From the IMG/VR virus record IMGVR_UViG_3300045988_157661: a DNA stretch of 35,495 bases. One strand, written 5' to 3'. Origin of the DNA: a virus. The notes under the pieces are model-generated. The model worked only from the letters and a program-made list of their open reading frames with translations, had not been told where the DNA came from and searched no databases. Shown in pieces: positions 9,839 through 15,121 of the stretch. Each line of letters starts with the position of its first letter. Positions within the stretch are counted from its first letter, which is position 1. The translations under genes were made by a program, and so were the position numbers.

Positions 9839-9992
9839 AAGAGAAAGGCCGAATATGGTAAAATGTGTTGAATGCGCAAACCATTACGGCGGAGTAAGCA
9901 ATTATATGGTGTACTGTAAAAAATTAGGATTTTATAGATCCTTAGCGGCAAGAACTTGTGAGTATTTTGTAGAACTTAAAAAACAGAATTAA
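9819..9992 (+). CDS. Small Cys-rich (zinc-ribbon-like) protein, tentative
   Basis: Manual 57-aa ORF MKKKSIKRERPNMVKCVECANHYGG...VYCKKLG...ARTCEYFVELKKQN. Ends 1 nt before ATG 9994. Below the track cut-off. Confidence 0.3.
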   Translation: MKKKSIKRERPNMVKCVECANHYGGVSNYMVYCKKLGFYRSLAARTCEYFVELKKQN

Positions 9993-9993
9993 C

Positions 9994-11319
9994 ATGTTGG
10001 AGAAATTGACTAAAGAGCAAGAAAAAATAATGATCCAAACAAGGGATGAGTGGGCCAACCTGGTTTTTGATAACGTAAAGAATCAAAAGGGGATAGACAA
10101 AAAGATGTTTGAAGAAGGGATTGAATGGTTATATACCGATCTGCTTCACAAGCCTAAGCCAAAGGTAGTATATTGCGACAGTTGGCTAAGCTGTCTACTT
10201 ACTATTGCTATTCTCAAAGATGAAAAATTAAATAAGTCGATTAAAAATAAATTAGGGGCTTCTGTCGGGGCTTCTGTCCGGGCTTCTGTATGGGCTTCTG
10301 TATGGGCTTCTGCCCGGGATTCTGTATGGACTTCTGTCCGGGATTCTGTCCGGGATTCTGTCCGGGATTCTGTATGGGCTTCTGTCCGGGCTTCTGTCCG
10401 GGATTCTGTATGGACTTCTGTCCGGGATTCTGTCCGGGATTCTGTCCGGGCTTCTGTATGGGCTTCTGTCCGGGATTCTGTATGGACTTCTGTCCGGGAT
10501 TCTGTATGGGCTTCTGTCCGGGATTCTGTCCGGGATTCTGTATGGGCTTCTGTATGGGATTCTGTATGGACTTCTGTCGGGGATTCTGTCGGGGATTCTG
10601 TATGGACTTCTGTCCGGGATTCTGTCCGGGATTCTGTCCGGGATTCTGTTTTAAACATATTTAATTTGTATTCTTCATATATGGGTTTGTCGAATTATGG
10701 ATGGGTATCATTTTACGATTTCTTTGAGAAAATAAACATTGTTGATGATTTTAATTTCAAACAATACAAAAAGATATTAAAATCAGGGGTGTTTAACGCG
10801 TATGAATTTGAAAATTTTGTATTTGCTATTCAACCTCCGATATATGTTGAGAGAAATTCGCAAGGCCGTTTACATTCCACTTCTACGGCAGCAGTAAAAT
10901 TCAGAGATGGAAGTTCATATTATTTTATTAACGGTAGGCCGATCCCCGAATGGGTAGTAGAAAAAAAAGACGCAATAACAAAGGACCAATTTTTACAGGA
11001 GAAAAACTCGGATATAAAGGGGGCAATATATGAAGTATTAGGATCAGAAGGTTTAATAAACTTGTTGGGGGCGGAAATAACAGATACAAAAACAATACAT
11101 CATGATAACGGAGATGTAGAGACAGTAGAACTTTTGAAAACAAAAGACACTTTTCCCGAGCTTGACGATGATCCTTTGGCATGGGTAAAAATGACTTGCC
11201 CCTCGACAGGTACTAATTATCTTATTGGGGTAGACCCTCGATATAATGATGCAATAGAAGCGATCGCTTCATTATCACCATTTACCAAAGACGAATATTC
11301 ATTTAATTTCAGAAGTTGA
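9994..11319 (+). CDS. Tandem tetrapeptide-repeat protein with conserved N- and C-terminal domains (uncharacterised family)
   Basis: 441 aa. Residues about 89-219 are [A/D/T]SV[R/W/G] repeated. The flanks (LTKEQEKIMIQTRDEW...VVYCDSW and ...GWVSFYDFF...GRLHSTSTAAVKFRDGSSYYFINGRPIP) look like ordinary globular sequence. Confidence 0.75.
   Translation: MLEKLTKEQEKIMIQTRDEWANLVFDNVKNQKGIDKKMFEEGIEWLYTDLLHKPKPKVVYCDSWLSCLLTIAILKDEKLNKSIKNKLGASVGASVRASVWASVWASARDSVWTSVRDSVRDSVRDSVWASVRASVRDSVWTSVRDSVRDSVRASVWASVRDSVWTSVRDSVWASVRDSVRDSVWASVWDSVWTSVGDSVGDSVWTSVRDSVRDSVRDSVLNIFNLYSSYMGLSNYGWVSFYDFFEKINIVDDFNFKQYKKILKSGVFNAYEFENFVFAIQPPIYVERNSQGRLHSTSTAAVKFRDGSSYYFINGRPIPEWVVEKKDAITKDQFLQEKNSDIKGAIYEVLGSEGLINLLGAEITDTKTIHHDNGDVETVELLKTKDTFPELDDDPLAWVKMTCPSTGTNYLIGVDPRYNDAIEAIASLSPFTKDEYSFNFRS
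10258..10650 (+). repeat. About 33 head-to-tail copies of a 12-bp unit (consensus GAT TCT GTC CGG)
   Basis: Counted from the translation: 32 full units plus a partial one. Only three variable positions: codon 1 is GCT/GAT/ACT and the junction is GTCCGG/GTATGG/GTCGGG. A 48-bp super-unit (DSVW TSVR DSVR DSVR) recurs three times. Confidence 0.95.
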
Positions 11320-13525: not shown

Positions 13526-13809
13526 CAGAGAGGCCAAAGGAATATTTTGAATGGCTTAAAAATCACAAGAATTTCCCGGTAGACAGATACGACATTTTCA
13601 TGAATAAAATGAAAGCGAACGGGTTTAAAACTTTGGATATAAATAGCCGATCCGGGATAAGAGTGATAAATGAGGAAAACAATAAAATGGTAGATTACTA
13701 TCACAGGAGGCAAAAAGTTTGTTTTTATGTGGATGGACAACAGAAATGGGTGTTTGGATGCAGTCACCAATTTATTATCGATTTTTTGAACGGGGAAATT
13801 ACACTATGA
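13498..13809 (+). CDS. Hypothetical protein
   Basis: 103-aa ORF. Its stop overlaps the methyltransferase ATG (ATGA at 13806-13809). Confidence 0.5.
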   Translation: MFEEDEYRLTERPKEYFEWLKNHKNFPVDRYDIFMNKMKANGFKTLDINSRSGIRVINEENNKMVDYYHRRQKVCFYVDGQQKWVFGCSHQFIIDFLNGEITL

Positions 13810-14777
13810 ATACCCAAGAAAATATATTTACTCACGGTTCTTTGTTCAGCGGGATAGGAGGTTTCGATCTTGCTGCCGAATGGATCGGATGGAAAAACGT
13901 ATTTCATTGTGAGATAAATGAATTTTGTACTAAAATATTAAACTATCATTTCCCTAATGCAGAACATTATACAGACATCACAAAGACAGATTTTACAAAA
14001 TGGAGAGGTAAAATCGATGTTCTTAGCGGAGGATTCCCGTGCCAACCTTTCAGTGTCGCAGGAAAAAGAAAGGGAACGGATGATAACCGTTACCTCTGGC
14101 CGGAAATGTTGCGAGCAATACAAGAGATACGACCGACTTGGATTGTTGGTGAAAATGTTGCTGGAATCGTATCGATGGTACAGCCCGGTAAAGAGGTTGA
14201 AATGGGTTGCCAAGGCTCTATATTCGGAGAAGATAACAGAAAAAGAGTATTGTTGCGCCAAGAATATATCATCGAAACAATCTGTAAAGATATTGAACGA
14301 GAGGGATATTCCGTCCAACCGATTATTATTCCAGCTTGTGCCGTTGGTGCGCCACACAAAAGAGATAGGATTTGGTTTATTGCCAACTGTACAGACACAG
14401 GGGCTGAAAGTATGCAACAAACAGGGGAAAACGATATTCATGCCATTGGATTTACTCCCGACGCCAAGAGCGAACAAAGTCAATGGAGTAAATTTGAACA
14501 ACCCCAAAATGGCACAAAGGAACAAAGGGAATTTGGAAGAATCTGTTGCAAAAATCATTCAGGCCATACCATACGAGGATGGGGAAACTTCCCAACTCAA
14601 CCCCCTGTTTGTAGCAGAAATGATGGGGTTTCCACCAGATTGGACGGAATTACCTTTTCTAAATGGCGAGAAGAAAGTATAAAAGCGTATGGGAATGCGA
14701 TTGTTCCACAAGTGGCATACGAGATATTCAAGGCTATCAAGGGAACATATTATAAACCGAAAGGAGTTGGAAAATGA
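13806..14777 (+). CDS. dcm: DNA (cytosine-5)-methyltransferase
   Basis: From ATG 13806 (MNTQENIF...). Motif I LFSGIGGFD, motif IV SGGFPCQPFS, motif VI VGENV, motif VIII GAPHKRDRIWFIA, motif X YGNAIVPQVA. Confidence 0.9.
   Translation: MNTQENIFTHGSLFSGIGGFDLAAEWIGWKNVFHCEINEFCTKILNYHFPNAEHYTDITKTDFTKWRGKIDVLSGGFPCQPFSVAGKRKGTDDNRYLWPEMLRAIQEIRPTWIVGENVAGIVSMVQPGKEVEMGCQGSIFGEDNRKRVLLRQEYIIETICKDIEREGYSVQPIIIPACAVGAPHKRDRIWFIANCTDTGAESMQQTGENDIHAIGFTPDAKSEQSQWSKFEQPQNGTKEQREFGRICCKNHSGHTIRGWGNFPTQPPVCSRNDGVSTRLDGITFSKWREESIKAYGNAIVPQVAYEIFKAIKGTYYKPKGVGK
13957..14682 (+). other. 241-codon +1-frame ORF fully nested in the methyltransferase gene. Coding status unresolved.
   Basis: Track ORF. 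Its translation contains ...TSGRKC...NRLLFQLVP...GFGLLPTVQTQ...DLLPTPRANK...LNPLFVAEMMGFPPDWTELPF. See findings. Confidence 0.35.
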
Positions 14778-15121
14778 AAAGAGAAGAAATTGAAAAAGCG
14801 GCAAAAAAATACGCTAATGAAAACGCATATATACCAAGTGATATTTACGCTGAAAATAATATGATAGAAATGAAGGAAAGTTTTGCCGAAGCTTTCAGAG
14901 AAGGTGTAGAATGGTGCATAAATAGCATGTGGCATGATGCAGCCGAAGAACCTGAAAGAGAAACGGCAATCATCGTATTGTTTTCAGAAAAAAATCACGA
15001 AATGGAAACAGTATATTATACTTATGACTCTCCCGATGATTGTTGGGAGGAAATAAAAGAAAATCACAATTTTTCAAAATGGGCATATGTGGAAGATTTA
15101 ATACCTAATATGGAGGAATGA
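14774..15121 (+). CDS. Hypothetical protein
   Basis: 115-aa ORF whose start overlaps the MTase stop. WHDAAEEPERE... is loosely DUF551-like (weak). Confidence 0.55.
   Translation: MKREEIEKAAKKYANENAYIPSDIYAENNMIEMKESFAEAFREGVEWCINSMWHDAAEEPERETAIIVLFSEKNHEMETVYYTYDSPDDCWEEIKENHNFSKWAYVEDLIPNMEE

Follow-up and report, generated by a model that had tools for sequence, protein, structure and literature searches.

An open reading frame nested in a viral C5-methyltransferase gene that probably encodes a second subunit of the enzyme

Can one stretch of viral DNA, read in two frames of the same strand, encode both subunits of a cytosine methyltransferase? The question is raised by a gene in IMG/VR virus record IMGVR_UViG_3300045988_157661, whose whole 35,495-nucleotide stretch of DNA was analysed and is referred to here as the window. 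The gene (alpha, frame 0) contains wholly within it a second open reading frame (beta, +1 frame), and the initial annotation offered four explanations for the pair: an overprinted partner resembling a target-recognition domain (TRD), an enzyme that needs two frame changes, the fossil of an ancestral frame, and compensating indel errors. Both open reading frames are present (Table 1), and neither chance nor error accounts for them. The reading that we consider probable is that of a nested heterodimeric C5-methyltransferase. The gene lies in a phage replication module, with a RecE-like exonuclease and a weak match to a primosomal protein several genes upstream.

Table 1. Coordinates of the methyltransferase locus in the window.
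Feature	Coordinates	Strand	Description
alpha ORF, frame 0	13806..14777	+	323 aa; ATG at 13806, stop at 14775–14777
alpha-only segment, containing motif I	13806..13956	+	+1 frame shut by four stops
Motif I FSGIGG, alpha frame	13845..13862	+	
beta ORF, +1 frame	13957..14682	+	241 aa; stop at 14680–14682; wholly nested in alpha
beta start codon ATG	13957..13959	+	80 nt 5' of the motif IV 'PCQ' codon
Dual-coding segment	13957..14390	+	alpha motifs IV, VI and VIII over beta N-terminal ~145 aa
Motif IV, alpha frame	14031..14054	+	
Motif VIII, alpha frame	14349..14378	+	
Variable cassette	14391..14589	+	beta: recognition-like modules; alpha: low-complexity spacer
Motif IX, beta frame	14590..14658	+	PF00145 and M.HhaI alignment
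Motif X GNAIVPQV, alpha frame	14691..14714	+	3' of the beta stop; M.HhaI alignment
Antisense 206-codon ORF	13938..14558	−	codon-aligned with frame 0

Distribution of motifs between the frames

Each of the two translations was searched separately. Alpha matches Pfam PF00145 (E=7.6e-44, 150.9 bits, in two stretches), PHROG phrog_363 (E=1.7e-75) and TIGR00675 (dcm; 121.8 bits against a cut-off of 100.65), and motifs I, IV, VI (ENV), VIII and X, which had been recognised by eye, can all be read in its sequence. Alpha thus has what defines the large domain of a C5-methyltransferase—motif I, motif IV with the catalytic Cys in PCQ, and motifs VI, VIII and X; motif IX and a target-recognition region, which should stand between motifs VIII and X of the same polypeptide, are absent from it.

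Motif IX is found in the beta frame, as the initial annotation had supposed. There it reads SQLNPLFVAEMMGFPPDWTELPF and aligns to M.HhaI 268–290 ('GKTRKLHPRECARVMGYPDSY'). When this segment is joined to motif X of alpha it scores 23.6 bits on PF00145 (E=4e-5, positions 274–323), compared with 12.0 bits for the frame-0 reading, in which the C-terminal 68 aa of alpha match positions 298–323 (motif X) only; a match to positions 274–297 (motif IX) requires the +1-frame segment. Over the same DNA alpha reads 'FPTQPPVCSRNDGVSTRLDGITF', which is largely a shadow of the beta motif IX.

The variable cassette that precedes motif IX encodes in the beta frame 'LLPTVQTQGLKVCN..' followed by 'LLPTPRANKVNG..' modules, of the general form LLPTxQ/LLPTPxA, and between one and five LLPTPxA units are present per gene in the relatives. 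The cassette is replaced between near-identical backbones, in one locus (L085) that is otherwise ~100% identical and in another (L003) that is 90–98% identical.

Beta belongs to a large family, with 4,438 database matches (up to 65% identity and 100% coverage) and 12,297 clusters at 50% identity (E≤1e-3). It is a member of PHROG phrog_1008, 'DNA methyltransferase' (E=5.1e-17, 63.3 bits, in two stretches). The start codon is conserved as well: 80 of 84 loci have an ATG in the beta frame 80 and/or 68 nt upstream of the 'PCQ' codon of motif IV, and most library representatives of beta start at the profile position of the window beta ATG. In Paenibacillus phage BN12 a Shine-Dalgarno-like GGAGG lies 12 nt upstream of the beta ATG.

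Conservation and selection in the two frames

Within the gene, the +1 frame has stops at 13807, 13855, 13915 and 13939 (13939–13941), and the next is at 14680. As many as 22 stops are found in the +2 frame, which makes the depletion specific to the frame rather than a general effect of composition. A compositional cause of the open +1 frame was also ruled out by the relatives, in which the longest open run of the +2 frame has a median of 12% of gene length. In the other genes of the window, alternative frames on the same strand are open for no more than 137 codons, the 137-codon case lying in a repeat region.

Eighty related IMG/VR loci, all independently assembled, were retrieved by the N-terminus of the frame-0 protein alone (58–95% amino acid identity). 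In 78 of these the two frames stay open through the gene, and the third frame is normally stop-rich; the longest open +1 run has a median of 85% of gene length (75 genes). When loci in bacterial genomes were instead retrieved through beta, the nested layout was seen in 66 of 80, and it is also present in cultured phages of Bacteroides, Porphyromonas, Paenibacillus and Lactobacillus.

The openness of each frame was evaluated in 39 loci by resampling synonymous codons locus by locus, from the encoded protein and the local codon usage. Over motifs IV–VIII about 6.4 stops are expected in the +1 frame, and all 39 loci are free of them (simulated open fraction 0.3%). The reciprocal result is obtained for frame 0 over the variable region, where about 10.4 stops are expected and again all 39 loci have none (simulated open fraction 0.2%). 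The nested frame does stay open in homologues.

Selection was measured as pN/pS for each frame and divergence bin (Table 2), with a neutral expectation obtained by simulation. In the three less-diverged bins frame-0 pN/pS is low both in the alpha-only segment and over motifs IV–VIII. Over motifs IV–VIII the +1 frame also falls below the value expected if it were unconstrained, with the qualification that the simulation is simple (a uniform mutation model and one omega per frame) and that sequence pairs are non-independent. Both frames thus appear to be under purifying selection here, the N-terminal 145 codons of beta included, and for this reason we regard the stretch as truly dual-coding. The initial annotation had suggested examining whether synonymous sites in frame 0 are suppressed across the overlap; relative to the short alpha-only region, frame-0 synonymous divergence is lower over motifs IV–VIII in the more diverged pairs, but not in the others.

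Table 2. Values of pN/pS by segment and frame.
Segment	Frame 0 (alpha)	+1 frame (beta)	Simulated expectation
alpha-only	0.11–0.18 (three less-diverged bins)		
Motifs IV–VIII	0.21–0.24 (three less-diverged bins)	0.76–0.99	1.7–2.0 (+1 frame, unconstrained)
Variable region	1.06–1.28	0.39–0.57	1.14–1.26 (frame 0, neutral)
Motif IX	0.89	0.34	

The pattern is different in the variable region, where beta is constrained and alpha matches the neutral expectation. The alpha variable region is a neutrally evolving spacer that is merely kept stop-free, and selection there acts on the +1 frame only; it follows that no DNA-recognition segment in alpha itself is under selection. In the motif IX segment beta again has the lower pN/pS, and variability is highest at beta third codon positions.

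These data bear directly on whether the layout is a sequencing artefact, produced by compensating indels, or the relic of a decaying ancestral frame. Some database entries (P0117, P0071 and P0391) do have indel-like fusions of the frames, as such an explanation would predict. Against it, compensating errors are refuted by the sharing of one layout among 78 of 80 independent assemblies and among the finished genomes of cultured phages, and a fossil frame by its stop-free conservation, which is far beyond chance, and by purifying selection on the +1 frame (pN/pS 0.3–0.57). We consider an artefact or relic extremely improbable.

A putative two-frame enzyme and its alternatives

We propose that translation from the first ATG would yield alpha, comprising the AdoMet-binding catalytic large domain (motifs I, IV, VI and VIII), the spacer, and motif X. 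The sequence of the spacer would be unimportant, and motif X would have to fold back to the large domain. Independent initiation at the internal ATG would yield beta in the +1 frame, the C-terminal half of which would supply the parts that alpha lacks—target-recognition modules and motif IX, together the small domain—while the ~145 residues at its N-terminus, which overlie motifs IV–VIII, probably aid binding to alpha. The two chains would then assemble on DNA to form the active enzyme, and a swap of the beta cassette would cause the phage to methylate a different sequence. The separate translation of beta, its physical assembly with alpha, and a role of the PTP modules as determinants of specificity are thus each predicted from sequence. 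Of the explanations offered initially, that of an overprinted TRD-like partner in a split enzyme is the one favoured by the conserved family and ATG, the purifying selection, motif IX and the swappable modules.

The same motifs could in principle be brought together by a double programmed frameshift, +1 near 14380–14400 and −1 near 14650–14660 (at a CCTTTTC run), giving one canonical methyltransferase. A conceptual chimera built in this way is collinear with M.HhaI over three ordered stretches and scores 160.4 bits on PF00145, compared with 150.9 for alpha; a T4 run (14655–14658) is located where the two Phe codons overlap; and rare database open reading frames (P0391 and P0436) fuse the beta motif IX and the alpha motif X in-frame. 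Such a mechanism has no need, however, of an open frame 0 through the variable region or of an open +1 frame in the 145 codons 5' of the first shift, both of which are conserved, and it leaves unexplained the conserved beta ATG and the apparent selection on the N-terminal half of beta. The T4 run is not universal, since one relative (L077) reads ..ITVSK.. and must have CCGTTTC there. No canonical slippery heptamer was seen, and frame 0 is not closed by a stop after either junction; both frames are open for 100–300 codons past either junction, which is not the arrangement of a programmed frameshift. An enzyme that needs two frame changes is accordingly disfavoured, as it predicts neither a conserved +1 ATG nor stop-free passenger parts, and we judge it quite unlikely.

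Database searches with joined sequences are relevant to the same alternative. The chimera recovered no single-frame full-length relative among the top 120 matches, and those with '99% coverage' were ruled out as canonical enzymes, because on inspection they are typical alpha proteins that have this spacer too. A query composed of the beta modules, motif IX and the alpha motif X recovered a few short frame-joining open reading frames (P0391, P0433 and P0436), together with two (P0421 and P0443) that hold a beta-type motif IX plus the alpha 'shadow' segment. Both P0433 and P0436 stand alone: upstream of them no PF00145 gene is called, and the join in P0436 is not at the T run. In our view all these short sequences represent remnants or indel variants and do not preserve an ancestral form.

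A further alternative is that beta is translated but is not a methyltransferase subunit, serving as a regulator or in some other DNA-related role, with alpha acting alone and the spacer replacing the TRD. Consistent with this, no Pfam or NCBIfam model matches beta, and a search of its profile against PDB sequences found no solved structure, with chance matches only (katanin, E=0.6). An AlphaFold2 model of beta alone, from a 48-sequence alignment, has a mean pLDDT of 45.7 and is unusable, and that of the conceptual alpha/beta chimera, from the single sequence, is uninformative (pLDDT 34.4). Two decayed prophage copies (L147 and L128), in which beta is still open and alpha is truncated at both ends, are also consistent with a role outside the enzyme. 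This explanation is nevertheless unlikely in our view: beta has the one conserved motif that alpha lacks, collinear and just before motif X; the loci retrieved through beta mostly have it nested in an alpha gene; and the alpha variable region evolves neutrally.

Comparison with known systems and consequences for annotation

The closest parallel to the proposed heterodimer is M.EcoHK31I of E. coli HK31 (Lee, Kam & Shaw 1995, as described in PMC2836561 and PMC3404938). In those descriptions its beta chain is encoded entirely inside alpha in another frame, motifs I–VIII and X are on alpha and motif IX on beta, the chains must associate for activity, and progressive N-terminal deletions of beta weaken the association (PMC2836561; PMC3404938). 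The window gene, compared with that published description, has the same split of motifs and a same-strand beta nested in a different frame, here offset by +1; the N-terminus of the M.EcoHK31I beta serves association, not catalysis, which fits the moderate constraint on the N-terminal half of the window beta. There are also differences. The predicted TRD of M.EcoHK31I is assigned to alpha, and its beta has only motif IX, whereas the selected, swappable modules of the window are in beta and its alpha variable region is neutral, unlike a TRD located in alpha. M.EcoHK31I is also part of a restriction-modification system, whereas the window gene is in a phage replication module. A DNA-level search for M.EcoHK31I in 5,426 E. 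coli genomes gave no match.

M.AquI of Agmenellum quadruplicatum is likewise a natural two-polypeptide C5-methyltransferase; it is split within the variable region, and its smaller subunit has the remaining variable region and motifs IX and X (PMC3404938). In the window, by contrast, motif X stays with alpha, so that the second subunit does not carry IX and X together, and beta is nested. The monomeric enzymes M.HhaI and M.HaeIII have the order that would result if the window frames were joined (motifs I–VIII, variable region, IX, X), but in one polypeptide and one frame, whereas motif IX and the variable region of the window are readable only in +1.

Gene pairs with the same +1 nesting occur in Paenibacillus larvae phages (e.g. 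BN12_62/BN12_63), with both coding sequences annotated, and the BN12 beta matches phrog_1008 with E=1.6e-74; the BN12 pair and phrog_1008 are database annotations only. The phage-genomics papers examined tabulate the genes and do not remark on the nesting or a subunit role. No beta gene is annotated in Bacteroides phages BS-TP4 and BKO1-TP3 or in Lactobacillus phage Lc-Nu, and the frame-0 protein is the only product given by gene callers and by the majority of annotators. Literature searches on overprinting, nesting or alternative frames in cytosine methyltransferase genes of phages yielded no specific account, and the methyltransferase family described here goes unmentioned in the GeneTack frameshift survey. 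The kind of architecture is already known; the variant described here is new, widespread and mostly under-annotated.

Whether the large phage 'Dcm' class as a whole (more than 12,000 beta clusters at 50% identity) is an obligate two-frame, two-subunit one, with specificity in +1 cassettes that are kept stop-free in the alpha spacer, is to us an evenly balanced question. If it is, many database 'DNA cytosine methyltransferase' sequences contain a linker that is translated yet under no selection, motifs conserved in the alpha frame (such as 'FPTQSPVC..DDG..LDGI.F') are shadows of the beta motif IX, and the annotated protein cannot predict phage methylation specificity. Were beta the recognition subunit, thousands of cytosine methyltransferases from phages and prophages would have had their specificity read from the wrong protein, which would affect predictions of anti-restriction and host range. 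The 430-nt IV–VIII segment would also be among the longest same-strand, doubly selected dual-coding stretches in prokaryotic viruses.

The family provides a large natural data set of long same-strand overlap (about 240–500 codons) that could be used for models of overprinting, as it includes one segment in which selection appears to act on both frames, along with two 'passenger' segments selected only for openness. M.EcoHK31I, the sole characterised enzyme of this kind that we found, is already a platform for targeted methylation, and modular beta cassettes could widen that toolbox.

The initial annotation had also cautioned that antisense open reading frames at the locus might make part of the stop depletion compositional. 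The antisense frames are real, and the compositional share is contradicted by the stop-rich +2 frame. The codon-aligned antisense frame is open for 49–224 codons among 75 genes (median 33% of gene length), for example 120 codons in L085, 112 in L001 and 101 in L002. With its length not conserved, the 206-codon antisense open reading frame was ruled out as a gene and is read as a by-product.

Two open reading frames in one methyltransferase gene

The frame-0 ORF, alpha, encodes a C5 cytosine methyltransferase, with matches to PF00145 (E=7.6e-44), phrog_363 and TIGR00675, and the nested +1-frame ORF that the initial annotation had described, beta, is confirmed. Stop codons in the +1 frame of the alpha gene occur only before 13942 and at 14680, whereas the +2 frame has 22, so the depletion is frame-specific; no comparable second open frame was found in other window genes outside a repeat region. 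A 441-aa ORF at 9973–11319, weakly matching phrog_31813, has all six frames open for 132–182 codons.

Features of the two-frame gene, with pN/pS by segment; frame-0 ranges for the 5′ part and motifs IV–VIII are from the three less-diverged bins
Feature	Coordinates	Strand	Frame and extent	Frame-0 pN/pS	+1 pN/pS	Expected if unconstrained
Alpha ORF	13806–14777	+	frame 0, 323 codons			
Beta ORF	13957–14682	+	+1, 241 codons, inside alpha			
Alpha motif I	13845–13862	+	frame 0			
Alpha motif IV	14031–14054	+	frame 0			
Alpha motif VIII	14349–14378	+	frame 0			
Alpha motif X	14691–14714	+	frame 0			
Alpha-only 5′ part				0.11–0.18	closed by stops	
Motifs IV–VIII	13957–14390			0.21–0.24	0.76–0.99	+1: 1.7–2.0, with or without stop avoidance
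Variable region	14391 onward			1.06–1.28	0.39–0.57	frame 0: 1.14–1.26
Motif IX	14590–14658			0.89	0.34	frame 0: ~1.2

The nearest cultured phages, Bacteroides phages BS-TP4 and BKO1-TP3 (~76–79% nucleotide identity), also nest a +1 ORF in an annotated methyltransferase gene: 372 codons within 440 and 320 within 389, respectively. Eighty IMG/VR loci were retrieved with the frame-0 N-terminus (motifs I–VIII) alone, so that the sample is not conditioned on the +1 frame, and 78 of them keep both frames open across the gene. The +1 stretch spans 233–498 codons, begins 46–142 nt past the matched alpha N-terminus in most loci (about 15 are open from the very start of the gene), and ends 47–101 nt upstream of the frame-0 stop; open stretches in the +2 frame reach just 7–60 codons. 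The median open share of the gene, for 75 distinct genes, is 85% in +1, 12% in +2, and 19–33% in the antisense frames. In one clade (loci L030–L037, L040, L043 and L048) the open +1 stretch begins close to the alpha start and covers 383–498 codons; ATGs are found at −140 and −68 nt relative to motif IV, and there are as many as five PTP modules, the units of the beta variable region. Motif X in this clade is GNSMVP, which the motif X regular expression missed.

Synonymous codons were resampled with each locus's own codon usage, giving expectations of 6.4 +1 stops over the motif IV–VIII region with the alpha protein held fixed, and 10.4 frame-0 stops over the variable region with the beta protein held fixed; simulations without stops made up 0.3% and 0.2%, respectively. 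The observed number is zero in 39 of 39 loci tested. The conserved openness and the lack of stops exclude both compensating indels and a decaying ancestral frame, which the initial annotation had entertained.

Of 84 loci, 80 have an in-frame ATG at −80 and/or −68 nt relative to the 'PCQ' codon of motif IV (−80, at 13957, in the window), and most library representatives of beta begin at the profile position of this ATG; in Paenibacillus phage BN12, GGAGG stands 12 nt 5′ of the beta ATG. A double programmed frameshift producing one canonical enzyme predicts neither this conserved ATG nor the stop-free passenger segments, and not every relative has a T4 run at the second junction; we regard this frameshift as very unlikely.

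Selection by segment and the location of motif IX

Nei–Gojobori pN/pS values were obtained from 71 non-identical genes, binned by divergence, and calibrated by forward simulations on the window sequence; the caveats are that the sequence pairs are non-independent, that a simple simulation was used, and that the modules of the variable region align imperfectly. In the most diverged bin, frame-0 values reach 0.31 in the alpha-only 5′ part and 0.37 over motifs IV–VIII. A +1 ratio of ~1.0 over motifs IV–VIII matches a simulated constraint of ~0.5 on that frame, so that purifying selection appears to act on both frames here. In the variable region frame 0 is at the neutral expectation, far from the 0.63–0.67 predicted under constraint; judged by these ratios, this part of alpha is translated with no selection on its sequence. 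Within the motif IX segment, nucleotide variability is highest at beta third codon positions, and the conserved alpha string 'FPTQSPVC..DDG..LDGI.F' would mostly be a shadow of beta 'LNPLFVxEMMGFPxxWTxLPF'.

Profile scores bear out the earlier reading of motif IX in the +1 frame: a 70-residue string of beta segment plus alpha tail scores 23.6 bits against PF00145 (E=4e-5; the gathering score is 22 bits) and covers profile positions 274–323, motifs IX and X, whereas the same DNA in frame 0 scores 12.0 bits over positions 298–323 only. A conceptual chimera of alpha and beta segments aligns with M.HhaI in three collinear stretches, the third placing 'GETSQLNPLFVAEMMGFPPDW' opposite HhaI 'GKTRKLHPRECARVMGYPDSY', followed by motif X. 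That beta has a non-methyltransferase role is improbable, being hard to reconcile with a motif IX located exactly where alpha is without one.

By back-translation, a single DNA segment can encode, in frames offset by one base, both the widespread alpha-type tail 'RVANGVPNRVDRLKxLGNAVVP' and motif IX 'EWLMGFPxGWTD', so the tails of many other phage Dcm proteins may be motif IX seen out of frame. Past the beta stop, BN12 alpha (locus L083, 1259–2329) reads 'WEPARIETGVQNRVGRLKALGNAV'. Two database proteins, P0421 and P0443, are short single-frame ORFs with a beta-type motif IX 'LNPGFWAEMMGFPVDWTELPF' and, further downstream in the same frame, an alpha-type 'shadow' segment 'FPTQSPV..ITFSKWRNESIKAYGNAIVPQV'; they may be relevant to the origin of the two-frame layout, for example by motif IX duplication and frameshift.

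The beta family and its variable cassettes

The beta translation matches 4,438 database proteins, with identities that range from 65% at full coverage down to ~40% at 98% coverage; nearly all are without any Pfam domain. Beta matches phrog_1008, labelled 'DNA methyltransferase', and no Pfam or NCBIfam model. A profile built from 48 of the homologues finds 12,297 clusters (50% identity) at E≤1e-3, of which 1,190 reach E≤1e-30. By tblastn, beta is present in 62 cultured-phage records (Paenibacillus, Lactobacillus/Lacticaseibacillus, Bacteroides, Porphyromonas), and it occurs in plasmid records of Bacillus, Paenibacillus, Bacteroides and Arsenophonus. Both nested CDSs are already annotated in Paenibacillus phage records such as BN12, and the genome papers checked list the pair without comment.

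A beta query against a set limited to a single genome for each bacterial species retrieved 222 stretches, most of them from Bacteroidota prophages. Of the 80 best, 66 have beta inside an alpha gene, which usually shows all four motifs sought (I, IV, VIII and X); the non-nested exceptions inspected are decayed copies. These are Bacteroides faecalis and B. faecis prophage regions (L147, 1428–2547; L128, 1428–2493) in which alpha is without motifs I and X and the spacer has stops; beta is open (348 and 330 aa), and may persist after alpha or serve without it.

The methyltransferase gene of a related locus, L085, is ~100% identical to the window over 13806–14345 and from 14642 on, with a different, shorter variable region and a 197-aa beta carrying a single 'LLPTPQTRDYKG' module. 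Another, L003, is 90–98% identical across most of the remaining gene, with another module in place of the window's 'LLPTPRANKVNG...'. Relatives have 1–5 PTP modules. Such exchange between near-identical genes is the pattern expected of a specificity determinant.

The methylation module is also mosaic: the next gene in the near-identical phage L085 (2360–3085) encodes a Dam-like methyltransferase (PF02086), and the corresponding place in the window (14774–15121) holds an unrelated 115-aa ORF (phrog_32914). Six database proteins (P0117, P0071, P0391, P0402, P0496 and P0474) are gene calls joining parts of both frames, as motif I plus beta, beta motif IX plus alpha motif X, or beta modules plus alpha tail; in most of them the number of member sequences is one to three. 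All six are likely to be indel variants or products of misassembly, and they illustrate how the locus misleads gene callers. In two alpha homologues, P0121 (562 aa) and P0144 (411 aa), the motif IV–VI region is directly duplicated within the protein, in what may be an assembly artefact or a real duplication.

A nested two-subunit model and its precedent

The simplest model, and a likely one, is a nested two-subunit C5-methyltransferase. Two polypeptides would be translated from one mRNA, alpha supplying the large domain, spacer and motif X, and beta an association region, the recognition modules and motif IX, and the two would assemble into the enzyme. Conserved frames, the selection pattern and motif IX in beta support the initial suggestion of an overprinted TRD-like partner in a split enzyme. 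Structure prediction for beta alone and for the chimera gave no usable model.

This kind of system is already known from one characterised enzyme, M.EcoHK31I, and scattered database annotation; the literature searched appears not to describe the size of the family, the assignment of its recognition cassettes to the nested frame, or a selection pattern that changes from segment to segment. M.EcoHK31I is a documented example of the same nested two-polypeptide architecture, in which activity needs association of both chains and association weakens progressively as the beta N-terminus is truncated (PMC2836561; PMC3404938), which fits the moderate constraint on the N-terminal half of beta here. The M.EcoHK31I TRD is predicted in alpha, whereas here the alpha variable region evolves neutrally and it is beta that carries the selected modules.
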